Below, in pieces: positions 19,030-51,483 of a stretch of DNA of 64,000 nucleotides. The DNA comes from Dictyostelium discoideum. Lineage: Eukaryota. Position 1 is the first letter of the stretch, and each line of letters starts with the position of its first letter. Location of the stretch: the NCBI GenBank assembly GCA_000004695.1, contig CM000150.2, positions 800,001-864,000 of the forward strand, given 5' to 3'. The position numbers and the translations under genes are program-made. The notes beneath the pieces were generated by a model, which saw nothing but the letters and a program-made list of their open reading frames with translations, was not told where the DNA came from and searched no databases.

Positions 19030-19777
19030 TTTTAAACTTTATTGATAAAATCCATAATTGGGAAAGTAGGACCCAAAAAAAAGACAGCCAAAAAAGATCA
19101 AGAAGTGAATGCAGATTACGCCAACCACAGATTCCACAAAGAATACTTTGAATGGAACTATAAAGCAATAGACTATGATCTAACCAGATCATTCGCATAT
19201 AGAAACCTAATGGCCCTTATCCTCCACAACATTTGGATTTGGATTTGCAATCAAATATACAGTGAAGATCCTTTAACAGATGAATCACTATCATACAGCT
19301 CCCTTCTAAAGAAATGGCACAAATTGGCCACTCTAGAATACATCAAAAAAGCAAAAGATCTGAAAAACTTATCAGCAAAAGACCATAATAACTTCAAAGA
19401 TCCTAAGATCCTTCTCACTTCAACGATCAAGCTAAGAAAAACAACAGCTAATTACTATTGTATTCCAGAATCATCTCTCCCAAATATTATATCTTTTGAT
19501 CAATTCATATGATTAAAATAACCCTTCAGCTTAAATGATAAGACTTTAAATAAATATTAAATAAAACTCGTATTAACACAAAAAAAAAAAAAAAAAAAAA
19601 AAAAAAGATACAGAAAAACATATCCATCATCAATCTAACATCAACTCCCAAATATTATATCTTTTGATCAATTCATATGATTAAAATAACCCTTCAGCTT
19701 AAATGATAAGCCTTTAAATAAATATTAAATAAAACTCGTATTAACACAGATGGACATATATCAATCTTGTTAATCCA

Positions 19778-35460: not shown

Positions 35461-35754
35461 TTTTAATTTCTTATTTATTTTCAGAGTTCTATTAATTGTT
35501 GGGAAATTAGTTGAAAATGAAATATGAAAAAAAAAAATAAAAAAAAAAAAAGTTGAAAAAAAAATTTGTAAAAAAAAAATAATAAATTAAAAATTTAAAT
35601 ATTTCCAAGAAATTCATTTTTTAAAATTTTAAGAAATTTTTGCTTAAAATTTATTTTATAAAATTCTTAAAATTACTTATTTTGTAAAATTAAGATCGAG
35701 TTAAAATATAAATTTACTATTATTTCAGATAAAAAATTAAAAAATCATCAAAAT

Positions 35755-35825
35755 GGGAGATTAGTTAAGTGGTATAATGCTACCTTTGGGTGGTAGCGTC
35801 CTGAGTTCGATTCTCGGATCTCCCC
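35755..35825 (+). tRNA. tRNA-Pro (anticodon UGG)
   Basis: The acceptor stem GGGAGAT pairs with ATCTCCC. The anticodon stem CTACC/GGTAG encloses the loop TTTGGGT, giving anticodon TGG. The T arm is CTGAGTTCGATTCTCGG. A T-run terminator follows. Confidence 0.85.
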
Positions 35826-35870: not shown

Positions 35871-35919
35871 TCTATTTGAAAGATTAATAAAAGAGACAAC
35901 ATAGCACAAAAAAAAAAAA

Positions 35920-36792
35920 ATGAATTTTTTCGATAAACTTAAAGGTGAACTCAACTTAGGCGAAGAAGAGTTAAATAAAAAAACTATTCAAATAAGGTTA
36001 TTCTACCCACATACCTTGGAATTAAATAGTAATTCATCAAAATTAATAGATAATTTCATAGTTAATGGTACTCTTAACATTGTCAGAAGACAAAAGGTTA
36101 TAACAGTATTTGGTAGAATACTAAAAGAAAAATTCACAATATTACACGAGTGTTACAGCACTTTCAAGTATGAAGATTTCCCACTGCAAAAATTCATACT
36201 TTACACCCCAGGATATCACTATGTCCACTTTTACACATTTACAAAAAACATAATAAAAAAAATAAACAATCAAATGGTAAAAGAAAACTGGGGATTGGAG
36301 CCATTACTAATAGATGAATACAACATAGTAATGCTACCAGATGTGATTAGATATTCATGCATTCTATTATTTAATAAAGAAGATGATATCTCAATCATCA
36401 AAACAAACATTGATGCTATAAAAGGTAGTAAGCATCCAATAAGAGCCTTCATCTCAGAATATAACAATAAAGAAATAAGAGATGTTAGAAAAAAAAAAAA
36501 CACAAGTAATAAAAATCAACAACCAACAACTACAAATACAACTAAATCAATACCATCAACTCCACCAACAACTAATGCATTAACAACCACACCAATAACA
36601 ACCACACCAATAACAACCACACAAACAACAACCACACCAACAACAACCACACATCAATTACCAACAAGCAATACAACAATCAACAACCTAAACAAAACTA
36701 CTACTACTACTACTACTACTACAAAACCTATCAATAAAATTACTACAAGCAATGGTACCAAGTTTCCAATTGCCAGTAGTATTAGAAAATAA
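35920..36792 (+). CDS. TRE3 #1 ORF1 (gag-like nucleic-acid-binding protein)
   Basis: 290 aa with a Thr/Pro-rich C-terminus. Its stop codon overlaps the ORF2 ATG (TAATGG). Confidence 0.7.
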   Translation: MNFFDKLKGELNLGEEELNKKTIQIRLFYPHTLELNSNSSKLIDNFIVNGTLNIVRRQKVITVFGRILKEKFTILHECYSTFKYEDFPLQKFILYTPGYHYVHFYTFTKNIIKKINNQMVKENWGLEPLLIDEYNIVMLPDVIRYSCILLFNKEDDISIIKTNIDAIKGSKHPIRAFISEYNNKEIRDVRKKKNTSNKNQQPTTTNTTKSIPSTPPTTNALTTTPITTTPITTTQTTTTPTTTTHQLPTSNTTINNLNKTTTTTTTTTKPINKITTSNGTKFPIASSIRK

Positions 36793-39700
36793 TGGAACAA
36801 TTAAAATTATTACTATGGAACTGCAGAGGTAATCAATCAACCAAGGCTAAGAATAAAACAGAAGAAACGATAAAAAGAATTGGCACTCAATTAGCACTCC
36901 TAACTGAAACTAATTTCAATGGATTCAACCACCACAAAACAATGTTCAACTTTGAAAGAATAGATCATGGTTCAGGTAAAGGAACTGGCATAGCAATAGA
37001 AAATAGAGATACAAGAAAAGGCCACATATCAATAAACTTCAAAGACGATGATGGTAGAATACTATCAATTAAATACAATTCCTTTAATTCTATCAACATA
37101 TTATTGATCTATGCTCCAGCGACTATATCTGAAAGAAACACCTTCATAATCAACTCAAAATCACTGTTTAAAAAATATAATTCAATCAACCATCAAATAA
37201 TAGCAGGCGACTTCAATAACAACCACGATTGCAACAGCTTCTTCGGTAATGAATTACGTAAAATAATAGACCGAAACATGCTACTAGATACTGGTATTGA
37301 AGAAAACACTCCAACATTTCCAAGATCAATGAAGAGACTAGATAGAATCTACTGTCATCCAACACTACTAAACCAAAATTCAAAACTGGTAGTCCACAAA
37401 ACAGTATTTAACAAATCAGATCACTTTCCCATCACAATCGCAATACAAACCAACAGAGAAACAACAACAACAACAACAACCAAACTAGAAAGACTCCCTT
37501 GGACATTATGTAAAGAAATTCTCAACAACAAACATATACATGATGGGTTATCAGAATTAATCAGTAAGAACAAAGATAAGATCAAATCAGTGGAGGAATG
37601 GACGAAATTTAAAAATAATGTCATCAGAGATTATTTAAAAAAAGAACAAAACAAAATTAAGAAAGAAAAGAACAAAAGAAAATACGTAATCCACAAATTA
37701 CTTGGAAATAGTGATATCATTCCAAAGATGAGAAAAGAACTCAATGAAGAAATAAGTAGAATATTAGAAGAAGAAAGAAAGGTAAAAGCATGGGATATCA
37801 AATTAAAACTCCACCTGCATCAAGAAACACCAAGCAAATACCTCACAAGTATCCTTAAATCCAGAGCCAAAGATAAATCAATATTCCAAATAAAAGATAA
37901 AGATAATAAGACCATATCAGATAAAGAGAATATAGCAAAAAGATTTGTTGAATTCTATCAAGATCAATATGAAGAGAAAGAAGATAACGAAGAAACCCAC
38001 AAGAAGTTATTAGAAAAATGGGAAGTAGACGTTGATTTAATCAAGAAACTCGAGATAGACAGACCGATAAGAATACATGAAGTGACCAAAGCAATCAAAA
38101 CTTCAAGTATCCACAAATCTCCAGGTTTAGACGGTATCAATGCACTATTCTACAAGTACCACATCAACTCAATAGCAAGAATATTGACTATAGCTTTCAA
38201 CGACCTCCTCACAAATAAGAAAGAAATCCCCACAAAATTCAAAGAAGGAGTAATAACAACAATATTCAAAAAAGGAGATGAACTAAACATTTCAAATAGA
38301 AGACCAATCACCCTTCTCAATACAGATTACAAAATTTTAAGCAAAATTCTCAACAGTAGATTATTAGATATCACCAGTAAAATTATCAACAAATTTCAAA
38401 ACGGCTTTGTTCCAAACAGGTTCATCCAAGACAATATTCAGATCATGAAGGAAGTAATAGAAATAAGTAACAAAAGAAAGAACAATACACTCATTACCTT
38501 TTACGATTTTAACAAAGCATTCGATTCAATCAGCCACAAGAGTATCACAAGAACATTAGAGCATATTGGTATCCCCCCAAAATTCACAGCGATCCTACTA
38601 AACCTACTCAAAGATACTAAAAACAAAATAAAGATCAACGACTTTTTAGTCAATGGAATAACAATCAGAAGAGGAACAAAACAAGGAGACCCAATATCAC
38701 CAACAATCTTTGCTCTAGTTTTAGAACCACTTCTAATAGATATCATCAATGATAATACAATCAAAGGCTTCACTCTACCAAATTCCAAATCATTAAAACT
38801 CACTGCATTTGCTGACGACATAGCAACATTTACAAACTCCACAGAAGAACTAATGAAAATTAATACTAAAATCCAAAAGTACTGCTCAGCAACATCATCA
38901 TCGTTAAACAAAGAGAAAACAGTAATGATAGCAATAGGAGATAAACCACACGATCTACCATTCCAAGAGAGTACAGTCCCAGAAAGATATCTTGGCCTCA
39001 ATTTCACCAAAACAGGTTTAAATTCAAAATACAACACTTTAATCCAAGAAATGAAAAACAATCTAATCAAATGGAAATCACAAGCAATAACGATGAAGGC
39101 AAAGATGACAATTCTCAAAACATACGTTCTATCCAAATTAACATACCATCAATACATGGATAATCTAAATGAAGAACAAATTGAGGAAATCAATAACATG
39201 ACCAGATGGTTCTTATTCTCCTCAGTTAAGAATACATATACAGAAGAGAGAAAATACAAAACTATGATGAAAATAGACAGAGCATATGCAGATTGGAAAG
39301 AAGGAGGCATAAAATTATGGGATATAGAACTAAGACATATAGCATTCAAAATCTGGTACATGAACAGGCTACTCCATAACAACTACAACAACAACAACAA
39401 TACCTTACAAGAATGGTACATGGAGCAATTAAGTAGAAAAAAAGCCCACACTTCAACCCTCAACGATATGTGCAGACACTGGGGTGTATTCAGAGTCAAA
39501 TTTTACCAAAACCATCCAAAGATAAATGAACTTCCAGACTGTATAAGAAACGACAATGACGAACCACTAAAACTGAAAGAAATTTACGAACTCATGATCA
39601 AAGACAGACACCCAACACCAAGAAGAACAGAATGGCAGAAGTTATGGGCGGTGAGATACAACACAGCAATACCCAAAGTATTCATAAACATCAACAGCAT

Positions 39701-40235
39701 TTCTCACCAAAAAGGTAGAAACACCCTCTTCAGATTCTTCTCAAGATCACTTCCAGGTATCAACCACGAAAGAGACACCAGATGCAAGATCTGTGGCCAC
39801 CTATTCAGAGACCCTTATTCTCACCTCTTCACTCTATGCCAAGATATCCTTGATATTGAAAAAACCATCATATCAACAGTTAACAAATTATCATTCACCA
39901 AAATCCACAGATGGTCAATGGATACCTTAGACATATCAAAATACAACAGAACTGAGAGAATCTTCCCCAATCTCATAGGAATAATAGCACACCAATTATG
40001 GAAGATAATCTGTCACAAATTGTTCAACACTGATGAAAGCAAACCAGAGCCAAAATTCGAACAAAAGGTCATAGAAACAGAATTACTAAATCTCATCGAA
40101 ACTGAAAAATTCATCACACTAAAGAAAATCAAACACGACGAAGCAATACTAAAAAACACCAATCAAGATCTTCACAAATACAAATTCAACAAAGCCTGGC
40201 AAACCCCAGCAGCTCCGAACCCTCTTCCAATTTAA
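36792..40235 (+). CDS. TRE3 #1 ORF2 (apurinic-endonuclease-like endonuclease plus reverse transcriptase plus C-terminal Cys/His region)
   Basis: The N-terminal endonuclease reads LLLWNCRGNQS..LALLTETN..DRIYCHP..SDHFPI. The reverse-transcriptase blocks are PGLDGINALFYKY, TLLNTDYKILSKILNSRL, FYDFNKAFDSISH, AFADDIATF and the ..HLFTLCQDIL.. HxxxC region. Confidence 0.85.
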   Translation: MEQLKLLLWNCRGNQSTKAKNKTEETIKRIGTQLALLTETNFNGFNHHKTMFNFERIDHGSGKGTGIAIENRDTRKGHISINFKDDDGRILSIKYNSFNSINILLIYAPATISERNTFIINSKSLFKKYNSINHQIIAGDFNNNHDCNSFFGNELRKIIDRNMLLDTGIEENTPTFPRSMKRLDRIYCHPTLLNQNSKLVVHKTVFNKSDHFPITIAIQTNRETTTTTTTKLERLPWTLCKEILNNKHIHDGLSELISKNKDKIKSVEEWTKFKNNVIRDYLKKEQNKIKKEKNKRKYVIHKLLGNSDIIPKMRKELNEEISRILEEERKVKAWDIKLKLHLHQETPSKYLTSILKSRAKDKSIFQIKDKDNKTISDKENIAKRFVEFYQDQYEEKEDNEETHKKLLEKWEVDVDLIKKLEIDRPIRIHEVTKAIKTSSIHKSPGLDGINALFYKYHINSIARILTIAFNDLLTNKKEIPTKFKEGVITTIFKKGDELNISNRRPITLLNTDYKILSKILNSRLLDITSKIINKFQNGFVPNRFIQDNIQIMKEVIEISNKRKNNTLITFYDFNKAFDSISHKSITRTLEHIGIPPKFTAILLNLLKDTKNKIKINDFLVNGITIRRGTKQGDPISPTIFALVLEPLLIDIINDNTIKGFTLPNSKSLKLTAFADDIATFTNSTEELMKINTKIQKYCSATSSSLNKEKTVMIAIGDKPHDLPFQESTVPERYLGLNFTKTGLNSKYNTLIQEMKNNLIKWKSQAITMKAKMTILKTYVLSKLTYHQYMDNLNEEQIEEINNMTRWFLFSSVKNTYTEERKYKTMMKIDRAYADWKEGGIKLWDIELRHIAFKIWYMNRLLHNNYNNNNNTLQEWYMEQLSRKKAHTSTLNDMCRHWGVFRVKFYQNHPKINELPDCIRNDNDEPLKLKEIYELMIKDRHPTPRRTEWQKLWAVRYNTAIPKVFININSISHQKGRNTLFRFFSRSLPGINHERDTRCKICGHLFRDPYSHLFTLCQDILDIEKTIISTVNKLSFTKIHRWSMDTLDISKYNRTERIFPNLIGIIAHQLWKIICHKLFNTDESKPEPKFEQKVIETELLNLIETEKFITLKKIKHDEAILKNTNQDLHKYKFNKAWQTPAAPNPLPI

Positions 40236-40240
40236 GTAGT

Positions 40241-40315
<75 letters not shown>

Positions 40316-40320
<5 letters not shown>

Positions 40321-40819
40321 TAATATAGTTTAAAAAATTTAATACAATTGAATAATAAAAATAAAACCGTTTAACAAACACCGCCGAAAAGACACAAGGA
40401 CATTCCTTGAAGGTCTGATCACAGGTAAAAAAAAAAAAAAAAAAAAAAGACAACATAGCACTAACTCCCAACATCGGAACTTGGGTGTGCAACCAATTGT
40501 AAAACGATGAACCGTCTTAAGATGGAAAGCTCTCTTAATCGGCCTTACTTAATAAATGGAACAAACTAGCCACCCTAGAATATATAAAAAGATTTAAAAT
40601 TAACTCTTTCAAAAGATCCGAGTAATTTTAACGACCCAAATAATTTCCTTAAACAAAAAATCAAATTTAGGAAACTAACTTGCAAAGTATATTGTATTCC
40701 AGAATCAATTCTCCTGAATCTTATCTCATTCAGCCAATTTATCTAAAAAACTAAAATTTTATTCAATAGTAAATACCAACGAGTTTTAAAATTGATATAA
40801 TCAATTCTACAAAAAAAAA

Positions 40820-40851
<32 letters not shown>

Positions 40852-41640
40852 AAAAAAAAAAATCTTTACTTTTTAAAATTAAAATACATATATAAACTAT
40901 TAATTATTGTTTATTTCCTTTAATTGATAAACTGTGACTAATCAATATATATAAAAAAAAGAAAGGATAAAAACTTTCATATTCTTTCGACTCCCTTTAA
41001 TTAACAAATGTTACAAACTTGTCACTCATTAATATATCAAAAATGAAGAAAAATTTAAATTATCCCATCCAAAAGATTCAAGCGATTTCAAAAATCCAAA
41101 ATATTTCCTTAATATAATATAAAGATTAAGAAAACTAACATGCAAAGCTTATTGTATTCCAGAATCAGTGCTTCCCAATATTGTATCATTTGCCAATTCA
41201 TATTATTAAACACAATTTCAATATTTAATTTATCTATTTTATTCATTTAATTGAAATACAAACATTTCTAAAACTGGATATTTTAAAAACAATAATAATG
41301 CACTATATTTTAAAAATTAAAATTTATTTTTTGTCAACTAAAAAAAAGAATCCGAAAAGATTCTTATAGAAACTATGTCTCAATCATTATCCACCGCACA
41401 TGGATATGCAAAATTCTGTTCAACTCAACCCTACACAAAAGAGCATTATTTCCTTACTCCGAGGACAAATAAACTTCAAAGGTATCCACCATAAGTGGAT
41501 AAACCTAATGAATCTCAAACTCTCCAAAATATCCCAGAAACTCAAAGGTTTGTTACCTTAAATACTCAGCCTTAATTACCATTAAAACATTAAAAAAAAT
41601 AAAAAGGTTTATTACCTAAAATTAAAATTGTTTTTTTTTT
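40316..41640 (+). mobile_element. Tandem array of 5'-truncated TRE3 3'-end fragments (at least three) behind the full-length copy.
   Basis: A 5' leader motif aaagacaacatagcac sits at 40447. Three separate stretches homologous to the ORF2 C-terminal/3'UTR region start at ~40550, ~41040 and ~41340. Each reads (..ctagaatatataaaaa.. / ..ctaacatgcaaagcttattgtattccagaatca..) and each ends in an A-run. Confidence 0.6.
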
Positions 41641-41785
41641 GTTAAAAAACTCACTATTAATCGTTTTTTTAAAGTTTTTTTTTAATATTATTATTAGATT
41701 ATTTTTATATTATTGGTATTATTATTATTTTATTATTATTTTAAATAAGAAGTTAATTTAAAAAACTAAAAACGTTTTTTTTGAT

Positions 41786-42498
41786 AACCCAATTATTATT
41801 TGCTTCTCCCGTCGGCTTCGTGATTGATGTTGACGACATATTTGAATTATTTTTTTTTTATTTGAGTTTTGTCTACAATTTCTCTTATTTTTTGTAGGCA
41901 TTTGTTTTTCTTAATATTTGTGGTGTTGTTTGTAATTTTCATCTTATTTTCTTTCTATTTTTTTATTTTACTTTAACTTGAGTTACCAGGTTTTTTTTTT
42001 TTTTTTTTTTTTAGTATTATTATTTATAGAGAGTACTGAGTGAATTATTGTATTTTTTGAGATGTTTGGGAAGTGCTATTGCGTGAAGTGGTGAGTTCCA
42101 TTGTTTGCTGAATTGTAATAGTATTAGCGAGAGTCTAGTTTGTTTTGTTCTTCTGGCCGTTGGTTTGATTTGGTCCTTAATGTTTTGTTTACCGATTGTG
42201 TCCTGTCCCATGCAGCCCTTTGTGTTTTAATCAGTTCTCGTATGACTTGTTTTCTATGTATTATTATTTCTTTTTAGTCGTGGATGAGCAACAGTATGGC
42301 GTGTCTTTAAGGTTGATGGTGCGTAAAAAACTTTTTTTTTTTTTGAATTGGATAACGCAATTATTATTTGCTTCTCCTTGAGATGCTAGATCTCATTTTA
42401 TTTTATTTTATTTTTATTTTTTACAGGGGGTGTGCGTAATTTTTTTTTTTTTTTAATAACATCACTCAATTTGAGTGTGTTCTAGGAGAGTTTATTTG

Positions 42499-42532
<34 letters not shown>

Positions 42533-42655
42533 CTTTTTTTCTTGTTATTCTTATTTTTTTTTTTTTTATTATTATTATATTATTATTATTATTATTATAT
42601 TATTATTATTATATTATTATTATTATTATATTATTATTATTATTATTATTGTTAT

Positions 42656-42694
<39 letters not shown>

Positions 42695-43157
42695 AGTAGT
42701 TGGTGTTATATGAGCAGTATGGTATGAAGTGTTCCGGGATTTTTATGGTCATGAGTTTCGAGTTCCAGTTGTGGCTGAATTTTTCGAGTCTTCTTTTTAT
42801 TGATGCGGTCCGATTGATTGACTCTCGGTTATCAGTGCATCTTAGTTCTTGACGTAGTTGTTTTTCTACTATCTTTCTTGTTCTATCCCATTCGGCATCT
42901 CTCGCTTTTTTTATTTTATGAATTATTTGGTTCTCTGTTATTATTGTAGTGTTATCGTTGAATTTTATTTGATTTCTTCTGTACCATATCGATTCCATAA
43001 TGGCTCCTATCAGATTTGATGAGAATGGTGTGAGTAGTTTTCCGAGAACTTTTTCGCTCCATGGACCGTGGTAAGTGTTGTTGGAGTCTTTACAGACCTT
43101 TTGATAGATTGAGTCGATATTCTGTTTTATTGATTTGCATTCGAAGAAGATGTGCAT
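41786..43157 (-). mobile_element. Minus-strand non-LTR retrotransposon remnants lying 58 bp upstream of tRNA-Pro #2, in a TRE5-like (5'-of-tRNA) position and in head-to-head orientation. They comprise an ORF2 C-terminal fragment (42690..43157) plus 3'-terminal sequence.
   Basis: The minus ORF ..HIFFECKSIKQNIDSIYQKVCKD..WYRRNQIKFND.. carries the HxxxC Cys/His motif typical of the ORF2 C-terminus in L1-like elements. Compare HLFTLCQ and HLFFNCQ in the two TRE3 ORF2s. A 28-bp terminal motif, gataacNcaattattatttgcttctcc, occurs twice at 41786 and 42351, each abutting an A-run on the minus strand. This suggests two tandem 3' termini. Confidence 0.45.
42690..43157 (-). pseudogene. Truncated retroelement ORF2 C-terminal fragment (Cys/His region)
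   Basis: See the parent element. There is no N-terminal endonuclease or reverse-transcriptase portion, and the fragment is in frame only from 43157 downward. Confidence 0.5.
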
Positions 43158-43215
43158 AGTGTGCGTAAAAAACTAAAAATGCTTTCAGCTAAAAAAATTT
43201 AAAAAACATCAAAAT

Positions 43216-43286
43216 GGGAGATTAGTTAAGTGGTATAATGCTACCTTTGGGTGGTAGCGTCCTGAGTTCGATTCTCGGATCTCCCC
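43216..43286 (+). tRNA. tRNA-Pro (anticodon UGG), second identical copy.
   Basis: The 71-nt sequence is identical to 35755..35825, and the flanks are similar (aaaaNcatcaaaat upstream, T-run plus exB downstream). Confidence 0.85.
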
Positions 43287-43314
43287 ACATTTTTTTTAAA
43301 AACCGTTGATCACA

Positions 43315-43324
43315 GGTTCGAATC
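43315..43324 (+). promoter_or_regulatory. External B box (GGTTCGAATC), 29 bp downstream of tRNA-Pro #2.
   Basis: The sequence cacaGGTTCGAATCttc. Confidence 0.6.
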
Positions 43325-43414
43325 TTCAACTACCTCAAATACATTCATTCCTCTTAATTTTACCCTTTTTTTGCTCATTAAAGCAAGGGCTATCGTCCTA
43401 TATACTTTTCAACA

Positions 43415-44623
43415 ATGGCTGATGATCACTCAACTGAATTACAGTTAAATCATACAGATAACAACACGACCAATACAAATAATACCTCCACAACCTCAAC
43501 AACAAAAAATAAAAGTGCAAAAATCGACACACCTAAAAAACAAACCCCAACAAACCAACTCTCACTAAACAAAGGACTTGATAATCAATTAGATATCATT
43601 GCACCTCCATCAATCACAAGACCACTCTCTTTCTTAGAAAAAAACAATAACACCATCAACATTAAGTGTTACTTTAATCAACCACACATCCGTGAAGAAT
43701 TAACCTCAAAAGATGACACAAGAATTCAACAAATTCACAAAAACATTCACAAACTCTTCGAAGATATACTGTCGCCATCAGCATTCAAAATAATTGGTGC
43801 AACTGCCTTCGTAAATTGCAACGTTGATAAATTAACTTCAATAATCAACCTTCAAAACCAACTTGCACTAAATATCGACAAACTCAACTATAGATTCGAT
43901 ATATCATCAAATGATTATGCAATCATTAAAACATTCATTAAAACGTACTCACCCAAACATGCAAACGATGCAATTACAAACAACCTCACTAAATTCACCA
44001 GTTGTACATCAATTGAATCATTTACTGTCACATACTCATATGCTGTTGCGTTTAAAAGCTACATTATAACATATCATCTAATTGATCACACACACAACAT
44101 TATTGATCAAAAGATCGAACAACCATCTGGTATCACAAGATATATCAAAGCTGCAACACGTAGTGTCACTAAACACAAAATTCAACATGCAAAAAATGCA
44201 GATATGGCAACAACTATAAAAAATGCCATCACAAACCCAAACATGAACAAAAACAATCAACCACCAAAAAACAACATTAACACCCCACCAATCAACGAAA
44301 TTGCAAATTCCAATCGCAATAATAACTCACTTCAAAATAGTGGTTCAAAAGCTATACTAAATGAATCACTTGATATTAACAATCAATCCCAAAACAATAA
44401 TGAAATTTCACACAAAAGTGATTCTTCAAATAATAATAACGGGAAAAACTCTTTATCAATGAGCAATCCAACCGATCCAACAATTGTACCACAAAAACCT
44501 CTACAATCTCAACCAAACAAACCAAGTGCACCAACTCCAAATACAATAAATACAAGAAGAAGCAGCAATGCCCTGACTACACAACCAGTCAATACTGGTG
44601 CTGCCAAACCTAGTAAGGTATGA
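43415..44623 (+). CDS. TRE3 #2 ORF1
   Basis: 402 aa with a Thr/Asn-rich N-terminus and basic patches. Its stop TGA overlaps the ORF2 start (ATGA), giving a -1 frame relationship. Confidence 0.7.
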   Translation: MADDHSTELQLNHTDNNTTNTNNTSTTSTTKNKSAKIDTPKKQTPTNQLSLNKGLDNQLDIIAPPSITRPLSFLEKNNNTINIKCYFNQPHIREELTSKDDTRIQQIHKNIHKLFEDILSPSAFKIIGATAFVNCNVDKLTSIINLQNQLALNIDKLNYRFDISSNDYAIIKTFIKTYSPKHANDAITNNLTKFTSCTSIESFTVTYSYAVAFKSYIITYHLIDHTHNIIDQKIEQPSGITRYIKAATRSVTKHKIQHAKNADMATTIKNAITNPNMNKNNQPPKNNINTPPINEIANSNRNNNSLQNSGSKAILNESLDINNQSQNNNEISHKSDSSNNNNGKNSLSMSNPTDPTIVPQKPLQSQPNKPSAPTPNTINTRRSSNALTTQPVNTGAAKPSKV

Positions 44624-47600
44624 GCTCAAAAATCAACTTTATAACATGGAATTGTAGAGGATTCACTGAAAACCCAAACAATCAACACAATTCCTACCAA
44701 AAAGCTGTTGACACACTACAACTACTTATATCAAAACTTCCACCTCGTCCAACAATCTCAATACTCACTGAACTCAATTCATCACCATTACAACTTAAAC
44801 ATGATTTTCCCGATCACATCATCTCTGTCACCAAACGAGGAAATGGTGTAATCATCATTAACCATAACCCAAACACACTCAAACTCAAACACATATCAAC
44901 AATTGATGGTAGAGCTATTTTAGCAGACGTTATATTTCCAAATCAATTACCAATTGGTATTCTTGGAATTTACGCACCAGCATCAAATAATACCATCAAA
45001 AAGAATTCATATGCAACTTCACTACAAACACTTCTCCACAACCACTCAACAAACCCAATACCAAACCAATCCCAACATGTATCTATTATCGCAGGAGATT
45101 TCAACTGTATCCACAACGACAATTCACTATTAGATGATATTATCCAATCCTACACATACCAACACCATCTAATTGATCAAGGTGAATTTAAAAACACTCC
45201 AACTCATACACATGGCAACAGATTAGATAGAATATATACTCAATACAATAGAATAGACCCTGAAAATATATATACACAAGTCCACCAAATTCCATCTTCA
45301 TTATCAGATCATAATCCAATATCAACAACAATTTCTTCACCTTTTCAAATAAATAAACATAAGAAAAGATGGATATTATCACCTGGTACTGCAAATGACC
45401 ATGAAGCAATCAATATTATCAATCATTTAATAACTAATCACAATAACACATCAATCAATCAATTTACAAACTGGTCAAAAGTAAAATCAAAAATTATAAA
45501 AACTCTAAAAAACTATCAATATAACAAAGACAAACAAACTCAACGTGCAAAACAAATACTATTAGAAAAAGCAGCAAAATTCAAACATCTTGAAGAACAA
45601 TGCATCGCTGAATACAATATTATATGTAACAAAAACAAACTACATCAAAACCACACAAACATATTAAAAAAACATATAAATGGAGAAATACCTAGCAAGT
45701 ATCTATCAGCAATACTAAACAAAAGATCAAAAGATGCAAAAATTGAATCAATCCAATATGGTAACATCATTACATCCGACCCCGACCAAATTGAAAATGC
45801 GTTTGTTGAATTCTACACAAATCTATATAGCTTACAAATATGTTGTCCAATTACTCACCAGCTCATGCTAAACACATGGCCCATCATAAAAAATGAATAT
45901 TGGAATGGTTTAGACTCACCATTTATACAAGATGAAGTTGAAGCTGCAATTAAAACCTGTAACCCCAACAAATCACCCGGTCCAGATGGCGTTACAAATG
46001 CATTCTACATTAATCATTTAAACCAAGTTAAACCAATTCTCACTACATTATTCAACGATATACTAGAAAATCCTCACCACATCACAACAGAATTCACAGA
46101 AGGTCTTATACACACAATATACAAGAAAGGCAACCCCTTACTCATATCAAATCGTCGTCCCATTACACTTCTAAACACTGATTACAAGATCCTCTCAAAA
46201 GTAATCAATGCACGTCTTCTGAGAATACTTCCTTTCATCATCAACAACAACCAAACTGGTTTCGTACCCCACAGATTCATCATAGACAACATCATCAACA
46301 TCAATGAATTAATCAACTACCTCAAATCTAAAAACCTCCCTGGTATCATCACACTATTTGACTTCTTTAAAGCATTTGATTCTATCTCTCACGATAGCAT
46401 TAAAAGAACATTAATTCATATTGGTATACCAATAAAATTAATAAATTTAATCCACAAGCTATTATCTGACTCACAAGCAAAAATTTCAATTAATGGTAAA
46501 ACGACCAGAAAATTCGATATTAAAAGAGGTGTAAAACAAGGTGACCCAATCTCAGCCACTTTATTTGTAATTGTAATTGAAATATTAGCAAGAACAATAA
46601 ATGCAGACAATTCAATAATTGGATTACCAATTTCACCCAATCCACAAATTAAAATTAAATTTACCCAATTTGCAGACGACTCTACAACATACAACATCAA
46701 CTACGAACAACAACAACAATCAATCAAACATTTCGATAATTTCTGCGCTTCAACATCATCATCATTAAATTTTGACAAAAGTGCAATAATAGAAATCAAC
46801 CCCCACAAAATCACTGATAAACACATAATAAACAACATTCCACAATCAAAAAGAATTCCAATAACCAAAAAAGATCAATCAGAAAGAGTTCTTGGCTATT
46901 TCTTTAATCATAATGGTTTACATAGGAAATTACCAGAAACAATGAAAACACTGATTAAATCATTAGTGCTATGGAAAACTAGTGGCACAACATTAAAAAC
47001 AAAAACAACCATCATAAACACCTACTCACTATCACCAATAACATATTTATCATACCTTGAAGAATTTACAAAAGATGAAGAAATTCAAATTAATAAATTA
47101 ATCTCATGGTTTATGAATTCTCCCGCAAATTCTGAATCACCAACTCTCGATACCAATTCCATTGAAAAAAACACATCAACCATCCATTCACGTGCAAAAA
47201 TACCTTTGATGTGTTATGATAGATCATTAAAACCATTAAAAGAAGGTGGTTGGGGTATGTGGAATATACAATTACGACAAGTTGCTCAAAAGATTTGGAT
47301 ATACAACAGATTTTTACAAATGCATAAATCTGCAAACAATTCAATATACATGATAAGTTGGATGGATCAAATCATCAACAAATCAATCTCTTCTCCATAC
47401 CTTATAAAAATCAAAAAAGAATGGGAAAACTATGCAACTCAAATTGGACATCTAAAAGATAAAGTTCAAATCCTACAACCAATATTAACAAAAAACCAAC
47501 CCTCTCAAACATTAAACACAAATAATATTTCACTACCACCAACACTCAAAGAAATCTACTCGACAATACTAAACAATCACCAATGCAAATCAAAAGACTA

Positions 47601-48447
47601 TATTGGCAAGAAATATTCAGATCTACTTCTTACTTCGCACCAACAATCAATACAACTATTATGGAAATACACATACGACCAACTTTTCGTCAAAATTCAA
47701 AAATTAAAAGATCCAAAAGGCCGAGATACAATGCAAAGATTCCATGCTAGATGTCTTCCGATTAATCATCTACACAACAAAGTTTGCCCCATTTTCAACA
47801 ATGAAATGAATAATGATCCCTATGGTCATTTGTTTTTCAATTGTCAGCACACAATCAACTTCATTAACCACGACAAATTAAAATATTTTATATATAAAAA
47901 TTGCAATGGAAACAAAAACTGGTCACTAACAAAAAACCAAACAACAAAATTATACACACTCATCTATAAACCACAAACAAACAACAAAGCATTTAAACCA
48001 GATCCAACTATCAATATTAATTTTCATTTTGCAGAAAACGCACAATATAAAAAATACAGGTTCAACTGGAATTATATAAACACAAATCTTGATCTAGTCA
48101 GAACACATGCATATTGGAACATAATCTCATTAGTTATTCACCAAATATGGATATGGTTATGCAAATCAATATTTGACATCAATATAACTCAATCAATTGA
48201 TAATTGGAACAACCAAATAAACAACACAACACTAGATTATGATATATTAAAATCAAAATGGCACAAGCTAATAAGATTGGAATATTCAAGAACTTTATCA
48301 AACTTTAACCAATACTCAATTAAAAACAACCTCATAAAAACTCAAAAAGAAACCCAATGGTCCGAAACCATCAAAAAATTTAAAAAAGAATGGAGCATAA
48401 ACACTAATGAACCAATTCCAACAATTACACCACCAATTAATTATTAA
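44620..48447 (+). CDS. TRE3 #2 ORF2 (endonuclease plus reverse transcriptase)
   Basis: The endonuclease reads FITWNCRGF..ILTELN..AGDFNCIH..SDHNPI. The reverse-transcriptase blocks are PGPDGVTNAFY, TLLNTDYKILSKVINARL, FFKAFDSISHDSI and QFADDSTTY. A C-terminal HLFFNCQH Cys/His motif is present. Confidence 0.85.
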   Translation: MSSKINFITWNCRGFTENPNNQHNSYQKAVDTLQLLISKLPPRPTISILTELNSSPLQLKHDFPDHIISVTKRGNGVIIINHNPNTLKLKHISTIDGRAILADVIFPNQLPIGILGIYAPASNNTIKKNSYATSLQTLLHNHSTNPIPNQSQHVSIIAGDFNCIHNDNSLLDDIIQSYTYQHHLIDQGEFKNTPTHTHGNRLDRIYTQYNRIDPENIYTQVHQIPSSLSDHNPISTTISSPFQINKHKKRWILSPGTANDHEAINIINHLITNHNNTSINQFTNWSKVKSKIIKTLKNYQYNKDKQTQRAKQILLEKAAKFKHLEEQCIAEYNIICNKNKLHQNHTNILKKHINGEIPSKYLSAILNKRSKDAKIESIQYGNIITSDPDQIENAFVEFYTNLYSLQICCPITHQLMLNTWPIIKNEYWNGLDSPFIQDEVEAAIKTCNPNKSPGPDGVTNAFYINHLNQVKPILTTLFNDILENPHHITTEFTEGLIHTIYKKGNPLLISNRRPITLLNTDYKILSKVINARLLRILPFIINNNQTGFVPHRFIIDNIININELINYLKSKNLPGIITLFDFFKAFDSISHDSIKRTLIHIGIPIKLINLIHKLLSDSQAKISINGKTTRKFDIKRGVKQGDPISATLFVIVIEILARTINADNSIIGLPISPNPQIKIKFTQFADDSTTYNINYEQQQQSIKHFDNFCASTSSSLNFDKSAIIEINPHKITDKHIINNIPQSKRIPITKKDQSERVLGYFFNHNGLHRKLPETMKTLIKSLVLWKTSGTTLKTKTTIINTYSLSPITYLSYLEEFTKDEEIQINKLISWFMNSPANSESPTLDTNSIEKNTSTIHSRAKIPLMCYDRSLKPLKEGGWGMWNIQLRQVAQKIWIYNRFLQMHKSANNSIYMISWMDQIINKSISSPYLIKIKKEWENYATQIGHLKDKVQILQPILTKNQPSQTLNTNNISLPPTLKEIYSTILNNHQCKSKDYIGKKYSDLLLTSHQQSIQLLWKYTYDQLFVKIQKLKDPKGRDTMQRFHARCLPINHLHNKVCPIFNNEMNNDPYGHLFFNCQHTINFINHDKLKYFIYKNCNGNKNWSLTKNQTTKLYTLIYKPQTNNKAFKPDPTININFHFAENAQYKKYRFNWNYINTNLDLVRTHAYWNIISLVIHQIWIWLCKSIFDINITQSIDNWNNQINNTTLDYDILKSKWHKLIRLEYSRTLSNFNQYSIKNNLIKTQKETQWSETIKKFKKEWSINTNEPIPTITPPINY

Positions 48448-48620
48448 TTACCTAATCTAAAATAACATACTATTTTAAATTCACAAAAACTAAAAAACCT
48501 AAAATAAATAAATAAAAATAACATACTAATTGTATACTACAATAGTTTATTTATATCAAAAAAAAAAAAACGAATCTTCAATTAAGTTCATTAATTATAT
48601 CAAAAAAAAAAAAAAAAAGT

Positions 48621-49531: not shown

Positions 49532-51483
<1,952 letters not shown>

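Follow-up and report, generated by a model that had tools for sequence, protein, structure and literature searches.

A probable stack of three 5′-truncated TRE5 insertions head-to-head with a tRNA-Pro(UGG) gene of Dictyostelium discoideum

TRE5-A (formerly DRE) is a retrotransposon without long terminal repeats (non-LTR), of the L1 clade, that targets the tRNA genes of Dictyostelium discoideum. We analysed a 64-kb stretch of D. discoideum DNA (the window, whose coordinates are used throughout) around a tRNA-Pro(UGG) gene at 43216-43286, here called tRNA-Pro #2. With a probability of about 90%, the minus strand of 41775-43158 is a stack of three 5′-truncated, poly(A)-tailed insertions of TRE5 non-LTR elements, head-to-head with that gene. 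It holds the products of three independent retrotranspositions: a 3′ fragment assigned to TRE5-A (E1), then an 87-nt stub identified as TRE5-A C-module (E2), then a C-module-less fragment that is very probably TRE5-B (E3). All three were drawn to the tRNA gene as their RNA polymerase III target. They are dead fragments without promoter, open reading frame 1 (ORF1), endonuclease or reverse transcriptase, and no function is implied; the locus is already-known D. discoideum biology in a textbook arrangement.

The three probable insertions and their target

The window was compared with other D. discoideum loci (L001-L003 and L005-L007) by BLAST with low-complexity masking, the unmasked run being swamped by A/T runs. 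In a protein database search, all relatives of the ORFs in the region came from D. discoideum or D. cf. discoideum. The features of the stack are as follows.

43216-43286, plus strand: tRNA-Pro(UGG) #2 (ARAGORN; Rfam RF00005, 57 bits)
41775-42323, minus strand: E1, the oldest insertion, a 5′-truncated 3′ end assigned to TRE5-A from identity to L002, L005 and L006
41775-41782, minus strand: A8 tail of E1
41783-41809, minus strand: last 27 nt of the C-module in E1
41810-41990, minus strand: 3′ B-module of E1, with the ORF1 start MKITNNTTNIK
41991-42012, minus strand: internal A22 run of E1
~42013-42323, minus strand: frameshifted ORF2 tail of E1
42333-42431, minus strand: E2, the second insertion, identified as a solo TRE5-A C-module; A13 and the 3′-terminal 87 nt (42345-42431), including the hairpins of stems I and III
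42440-43158, minus strand: E3, the youngest insertion, 5′-truncated and of putative TRE5-B type, from sequence comparison with L001-L003
42440-42454, minus strand: A15 tail of E3
42455-42689, minus strand: 3′ untranslated region (UTR) of E3, with (AAT)n/A-runs and, at its terminus, ~48 nt that are conserved
42690-43157, minus strand: C-terminal 155 codons of ORF2 in E3
41759-41774 and 43166-43181: direct repeat T1, TAAAAAACTAAAAA(C/T)G, matching at 15/16 positions; the distal copy is TAAAAAACTAAAAACG
42319-42332 and 43161-43174: direct repeat T2, GTGCGTAAAAAACT, an exact 14-mer
42430-42439 and 43159-43168: direct repeat T3, GTGTGCGTAA, an exact 10-mer

The hallmarks of non-LTR retrotransposition are present in each insertion: an A-tail (A8, A13 and A15), a target-site duplication (TSD; 16, 14 and 10 bp) and homology to longer copies that ends at the junctions. 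All three lie on the minus strand with their A-tails distal to the tRNA gene, which is on the plus strand, and are thus head-to-head with it, as are their relatives in L001, L002, L003, L005, L006 and L007. The 5′ junctions are 50 bp (E1), 55 bp (E2) and 57 bp (E3) from position +1 of the tRNA. Published distances of TRE5 elements upstream of tRNA genes are 44-54 bp (PMC5911963), or 37-211 bp, of which 59% fall at 47+/-3 bp (PMC5391098).

An earlier, sequence-only reading of this DNA had noticed a minus-strand ORF at 42690-43157 and proposed that it was the C-terminal Cys/His part of a truncated non-LTR ORF2 in TRE5 geometry, on one side of a tRNA gene flanked by retroelements on both. Each of these proposals holds. 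The ORF is there, with 155 codons and, as that reading had it, 58 nt between its ATG and the tRNA; the tRNA gene has the TRE5 stack upstream and a TRE3 element (43330-48570) downstream; and the head-to-head position at roughly 50 bp recurs in the E3 family, whose members lie upstream of tRNA-Glu (L001, 47 bp) and tRNA-Ile (L003, ~48 bp), head-to-head and with TSDs. The family is also found inside a TSD-laddered stack at tRNA-Lys (L002).

The ORF of E3 begins MHIFFEC, inside a C-x2-C-x7-H-x4-C knuckle that is cut at this point; the complete knuckle, CHSCKEEESSMHIFFEC, is present in the longer relatives P0003 and P0004. A further longer relative, P0001, is colinear with amino acids 964-1070, the CCHC region, of the intact ORF2 with APE and RT domains at 36792-40235 (E = 3e-5), and from this alignment we identify the E3 ORF as the C-terminal region of a non-LTR ORF2. 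What survives begins at the zinc knuckle and runs as far as the stop codon, the APE and RT portions having been lost by truncation. The possibility that the ORF belongs to a longer, interrupted frame continuing past 43157 had been raised as a refutation, but homology to other copies ends at 43158/43159. Over its whole length E3 is 91% identical to L002 10883-11552; identity is 98% to L003 and 84% to L001. Both the C-module and the B-module are absent from its 3′ end. E3 and its relatives finish with an (AAT)n-rich UTR and then ...CTCCTAGAACACACTCAAATTGAGTGATGTTATT-An, and all four copies of the family end ...AATTGAGTGATGTTATT-An, without a C-module.

At the conserved 3′ terminus of the E3 family a hairpin, CACUCAAAUUGAGUG, is predicted (42455-42490, minus strand, z = -3.8). 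It may be analogous to the essential hairpin of the TRE5-A C-module. In one relative, L001, a stem position is altered with no compensating change opposite it, and the copies are few for covariation. Automated annotation of recent Dictyostelium assemblies labels such transposon fragments (P0003; P0004, at L002 10001-11159; and L007 1-456) as hypothetical proteins, and P0004 is a chimera in which a B-module ORF1 start is spliced onto a TRE5-B-type ORF2 tail. The 155-aa ORF itself and a 776-aa helicase gene are each on record in just one other assembly, and the ORF at 50293-51483 has no database record.

Elements in L002, L005 and L007 match E2 with 93-94% identity over their last 87-96 nt. These elements show the TRE5-A.2 layout of ~200-bp A-modules, a B-module with ORF1 start, a 444-aa ORF1, a deleted ORF2, and then B and C, which is the architecture described in PMC3159450. 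In that study stem I of the 3′-terminal C-module hairpins contains C38 and A35 and stem III contains C26 and T15, and these four residues were mutated to disrupt stems III and I (PMC3159450). Counted on the sense strand from the last nucleotide before the tail, E2 has T15, C26, A35 and C38, and its predicted fold (z = -3.0) places all four in two stems, UGAGAU/AUCUCA and GCAA/UUGC. The identity values together with the four published residues lead us to identify E2 as a solo TRE5-A C-module, of which it holds 87 of ~134-137 nt.

The 5′ end of E2 (ACCCCTGT, 42423-42431) lies 1-2 nt from the breakpoint of a published 72-bp BC deletion of TRE5-A.2 (L002 10196-10204). That deletion leaves an 87-nt C-module; the agreement with the E2 end may be coincidence, or may mark a preferred stop or join point.

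In E1 the tail of ORF2, an A-run and a 3′ B-module follow one another without a break. This layout is unique to TRE5-A (PMC3159450), whose 3′ UTR is a duplicated B-module followed by the C-module and to which the 3′ B-module is exclusive (PMC3159450; PMC4559204), and it is the ground on which E1 is assigned to TRE5-A. Its B-module shares 90% identity with the B-modules of L002 and L005. For the ORF2 tail, identity to TRE5-A ORF2 tails in L005 and L006 is 87%; frameshifted, this tail translates on the minus strand as ...KQVIRELIKTQRAAWDRTQ... and ...FSKQWNSPLHAIALPKHLKKYNNSLSTLYK before the stop, and it is related to the 155-aa ORF of E3 at 31-45% amino acid identity (tblastn). It also explains a GC-rich stretch at 42020-42330, which the sequence-only reading had described as about 700 bp of non-coding sequence and possibly module or UTR of another element. 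The stretch is indeed richer in G+C (36.3%, equal to the E3 ORF, versus 23.9% for the window), but it is 311 bp long and is decayed, frameshifted TRE5-A ORF2 coding sequence.

The B-module of E1 is fused, with nothing in between, to the C-module's last 27 nt, giving the end ...GGGTTATC-A8. The internal gap in BC amounts to 187 nt relative to L005 and 105 nt relative to L002, and stem I and the terminal CAATTC are gone. The deletion junction, CGACGGGAGAAGCAAATAATAATTGGGTTATC, was sought in ~145 kb of other Dictyostelium DNA and found only at the same locus of a second strain (L007 1319-1350). In L006, the next TRE5-A copy upstream of tRNA-Leu starts at GCACAAAAG, which appears to be the same ORF2 position as the E1 start (CGCAC).

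The two C-module ends account for a recurrent motif, GATAACNCAATTATTATTTGCTTCTCC, that the sequence-only reading had given as 28 bp long, at 41786 and 42351, with each copy running into an A-run on the minus strand as if two 3′ termini were stacked. The motif occurs exactly twice in the 64 kb (expected 0.00) and its second copy is at 42351 as reported; the first is at 41783, and the length is 27 letters. The A-runs are as described, seen as T8 at 41775-41782 and as GAATTG followed by T13 (42332-42344). That reading had suggested a comparison with the C-module, and the motif does form the 3′ end of the C-module in TRE5-A (PMC3159450), its copies belonging to the separate TRE5-A insertions E1 and E2. 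Stacking of 3′ termini was therefore correctly perceived, but there are three insertions and not two, and the ORF2 remnant is of another family than the two that carry the motif.

Target-site duplications and order of insertion

Three pairs of direct repeats, missed in the sequence-only reading, lie exactly at the element junctions. T1 has just two sites in the window at <= 1 mismatch, T2 has no window copies beyond 42319 and 43161, and T3 has two window copies only (expected 0.00). Their distal copies flank the poly(A) ends of E1, E2 and E3, with the T-runs T8, T13 and T15 following immediately, and their proximal copies overlap within 43159-43181, just upstream of the tRNA gene.

The repeats are nested in a way that dates the insertions relative to each other. 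T2 is composed of 5 nt of the E1 5′ end (GTGCG) and the first 9 nt of T1, so E2 arrived after E1. T3 opens with GT, the minus-strand AC of the E2 5′ end (ACCCCTGT; compare ACCCTGT in L002), so E3 arrived after E2. E1, then E2, then E3 is the single order that fits the nested TSDs. Other orders were considered and rejected, as they leave either the proximal copy of T2 interrupted or the GT of T3 unexplained. Identity to other copies agrees with the order, at 87-90% for E1, 93-94% for E2 and up to 98% for E3.

The steps that would produce such a stack are established for TRE5-A in the literature (PMC5911963, PMC5391098, PMC3159450) and inferred for this locus. TRE5 pre-integration complexes would recognise TFIIIB/TFIIIC on the active tRNA gene, and the ORF2 endonuclease would nick the DNA upstream of it. 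The nick would prime reverse transcription on the poly(A)/3′ end of the element, a frequent early stop of synthesis would leave the copy 5′-truncated, and staggered second-strand cleavage would create the TSD. As the tRNA gene is intact after each hit, it can be hit again, and later insertions then come to lie between it and older copies; each new copy would in this way enter between the older copy and the tRNA and re-duplicate part of the same target.

Similar ladders are present elsewhere. In L002, at tRNA-Lys, four or five copies of (T)TGATCGTTATA form a ladder of TSDs, and upstream of tRNA-Leu (L006 10138-10260) a 7-nt C-module stub (CCAATTC) with A23 stands between two copies of GGGACAACCACATG.

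Family assignment and alternative explanations

Three TRE5 families are described in the literature. A C-module terminates TRE5-A and TRE5-C but not TRE5-B (PMC3159450), and TRE5-B is likewise described without C-module in PMC4559204. Our family names rest on published architecture, on the four published nucleotide positions and on elimination among the three families, the TRE5-A comparison sequences being TRE5-A.2-structured copies from L002, L005 and L007. In one element, L002 10303-10710, a distinct ORF2 tail is joined to an A40 run and a C′ module that shows 82% identity to E2, without B-module; its sequence fits TRE5-C, whose C-module has been published as 78% identical to that of TRE5-A. 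E3 is then very probably TRE5-B, an assignment made by elimination.

That route to the name leaves some room for E3 to be a TRE5-C element or a member of an undescribed fourth TRE5-like family, with the rest of the stack unchanged. In favour of this, whole protein-database searches returned only short unnamed Dictyostelium fragments and no full-length or named TRE5 ORF2. We nevertheless consider this unlikely, since TRE5-B is the family that lacks a C-module, as do all four E3-family copies, and since the L002 element with its 82%-identical C′ module already occupies the TRE5-C place. An equation of TRE5-B with the former Tdd-3 was rejected, as PMC5911963 cites the Tdd-3 papers for TRE3. DDT elements, which the sequence-only reading had listed among the consensus sequences for comparison, are unsuitable for this use, being putative DNA transposons (PMC4559204).

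The number of insertions could also be questioned. The 22-nt T-run at 41991-42012 resembles a further poly(A) tail, and 41775-41990 (the motif and B-like sequence) and 41991-42323 (the A-run and ORF2 tail) might then be separate insertions, each with its own poly(A), which would make four in all. In intact TRE5-A copies, however, the ORF2 stop, a long A-run and the B-module are contiguous (L002 9858-10140, L005 10722-11090, L007 9300-9600), so the T-run is internal to E1 and not a fourth tail; moreover, no flanking direct repeat was found at the 41990/41991 junction. We regard four insertions as very improbable. In a repeat-rich, low-complexity region where homopolymer lengths vary between assemblies, one might suspect that dispersed TRE copies had recombined or undergone gene conversion, or that the arrangement is an assembly artefact in repeats. 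The independent assembly of the second strain has the same stack, junctions and TSDs, with only two homopolymer lengths differing, and the TSDs here each take up a few nucleotides of the preceding element, as is expected of serial target-primed insertion but not of recombination. With TSD laddering also at tRNA-Lys (L002) and tRNA-Leu (L006), an origin of this kind is extremely improbable.

Several observations weigh against three serial TRE5 insertions, or against the names given to them. Pfam gave no match for the 155-aa ORF, P0001 or P0003, and the family names rest on architecture, four residues and elimination. Stem I, reported to be essential for retrotransposition, is missing from E1, so that a deletion after insertion must be assumed. 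Alignment of E1 with other TRE5-A copies is poor over its 5′-most ~35 nt (42289-42323), which makes its exact 5′ end and the templating of GTGCG uncertain. T1 is A-rich, has one mismatch and is the weakest of the TSDs, and E2 and E3, with junctions at 55-57 bp, are slightly outside the commonest 47+/-3 bp range.

Comparison with known systems places the stack as follows. E1 and E2 are like TRE5-A in their B-module with ORF1 start (E1), their C-module, whose stems I and III are placed as published (E2), and their oligo(A), TSDs and head-to-head position at 50-55 bp. They differ from it in being dead and 5′-truncated, E1 having an internal deletion of 105-187 nt and E2 being only an 87-nt C-module end. 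E3 resembles TRE5-B in its TRE5-type position and orientation, an ORF2 tail related to that of TRE5-A and a 3′ end without B- or C-module; unlike a complete element, it consists only of the last 155 codons and the 3′ UTR. TRE3 is a related L1-clade element with an ORF1 and an ORF2 carrying APE, RT and zinc-finger domains, and a complete copy lies 3′ of the same tRNA-Pro; E1-E3 are instead upstream and in the opposite orientation, and match the TRE3 copies in the window only through distant ORF2 CCHC similarity. Ty3 and Ty1 of Saccharomyces cerevisiae also target sites upstream of tRNA genes repeatedly through RNA polymerase III factors and build clusters of old and new insertions, but they are LTR elements that use integrase and not target-primed reverse transcription, and they show neither poly(A) tails nor 5′ truncation.

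Flanking TRE3 elements and a second strain

The downstream side of tRNA-Pro #2 holds the following features.

43330-48570, plus strand: full-length TRE3-type element, 43 bp downstream of tRNA-Pro #2 and in the same orientation
43415-44623, plus strand: TRE3 ORF1
44620-48447, plus strand: TRE3 ORF2, with APE and RT domains
43319-43329 and 48571-48581: TRE3 TSD, CGAATCTTCAA, flanking 43330-48570
43316-43326, plus strand: external B box (ex-B), GGTTCGAATCT, read from the sequence, downstream of tRNA-Pro #2

TRE3 elements integrate downstream of tRNA genes, at a distance of 40-150 bp and with the same transcriptional orientation, and 43330-48570 is placed in this way. E1-E3, upstream of tRNA-Pro #2 and opposite in orientation, are not; relative to tRNA-Pro #1 they are ~6-7.3 kb downstream, again in opposite orientation. 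The TRE3 TSD is located inside the external B box (for the ex-B concept see PMC5911963). Past its distal copy is an older 20-nt TRE3-like 3′ stub with A17 (48582-48618), so there is stacking on the 3′ side too.

tRNA-Pro #1 (35755-35825) and tRNA-Pro #2 are identical in gene sequence, the ~35 bp upstream are alike (35720-35754 versus 43181-43215, tttcag.taaaaaa.ttaaaaaa.catcaaaat), and an ex-B box follows both; judged by these sequences, the pair may be paralogous copies, as the likeness suggests. An Rfam scan of 40000-44000 at E <= 1 found the tRNA alone. Another TRE3-type element, 35908-40448, lies downstream of tRNA-Pro #1, flanked by GACAACATAGCAC (35895-40461). Next to it, 40465-40850 and 40997-41201 are diverged copies of sequence that also lies downstream of tRNA-Cys (19222-19618), and probably represent more 3′ pieces of TRE3. 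The two tRNA-Pro genes are separated by 7.4 kb, and transposons account for at least ~5.4 kb at the start and ~1.4 kb at the end of this interval; 41202-41758 has no match elsewhere in the window.

The family of E1 and E2 recurs at tRNA-Lys, tRNA-Thr, tRNA-Leu and tRNA-Pro #1, the last of these in a second strain. The assembly of that strain (GCA_054883475.1) is colinear with 23116-53157 of the window at 99.8% identity and has an identical stack, apart from two homopolymer lengths. It carries in addition a fresh 2.36-kb TRE5-A.2 (L007 7371-9736), whose distance upstream of tRNA-Pro #1 is exactly 47 bp and whose 13-bp TSD is ATAGTAAATTTAT. The corresponding site in the window, 35708-35725, is empty; this insertion is thus a polymorphism between strains, and a natural control for the mechanism.

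One speculative consequence concerns E2. Antisense promoter activity has been described for the C-module of TRE5-A, and the solo stub might retain it, firing on the plus strand into E3 and towards the tRNA. We think this quite improbable; if true, a chimeric transcript antisense to TRE5-B ORF2 could result, and could feed control of a different TRE family by RNA interference.

The three nested TSDs provide an unambiguous chronology of insertion at one locus, the value of which is illustrative. For TRE5 elements of Dictyostelium, tRNA genes are safe places to land, and one gene is hit again and again; the stack at tRNA-Pro #2 is a clean instance of this well-documented phenomenon.

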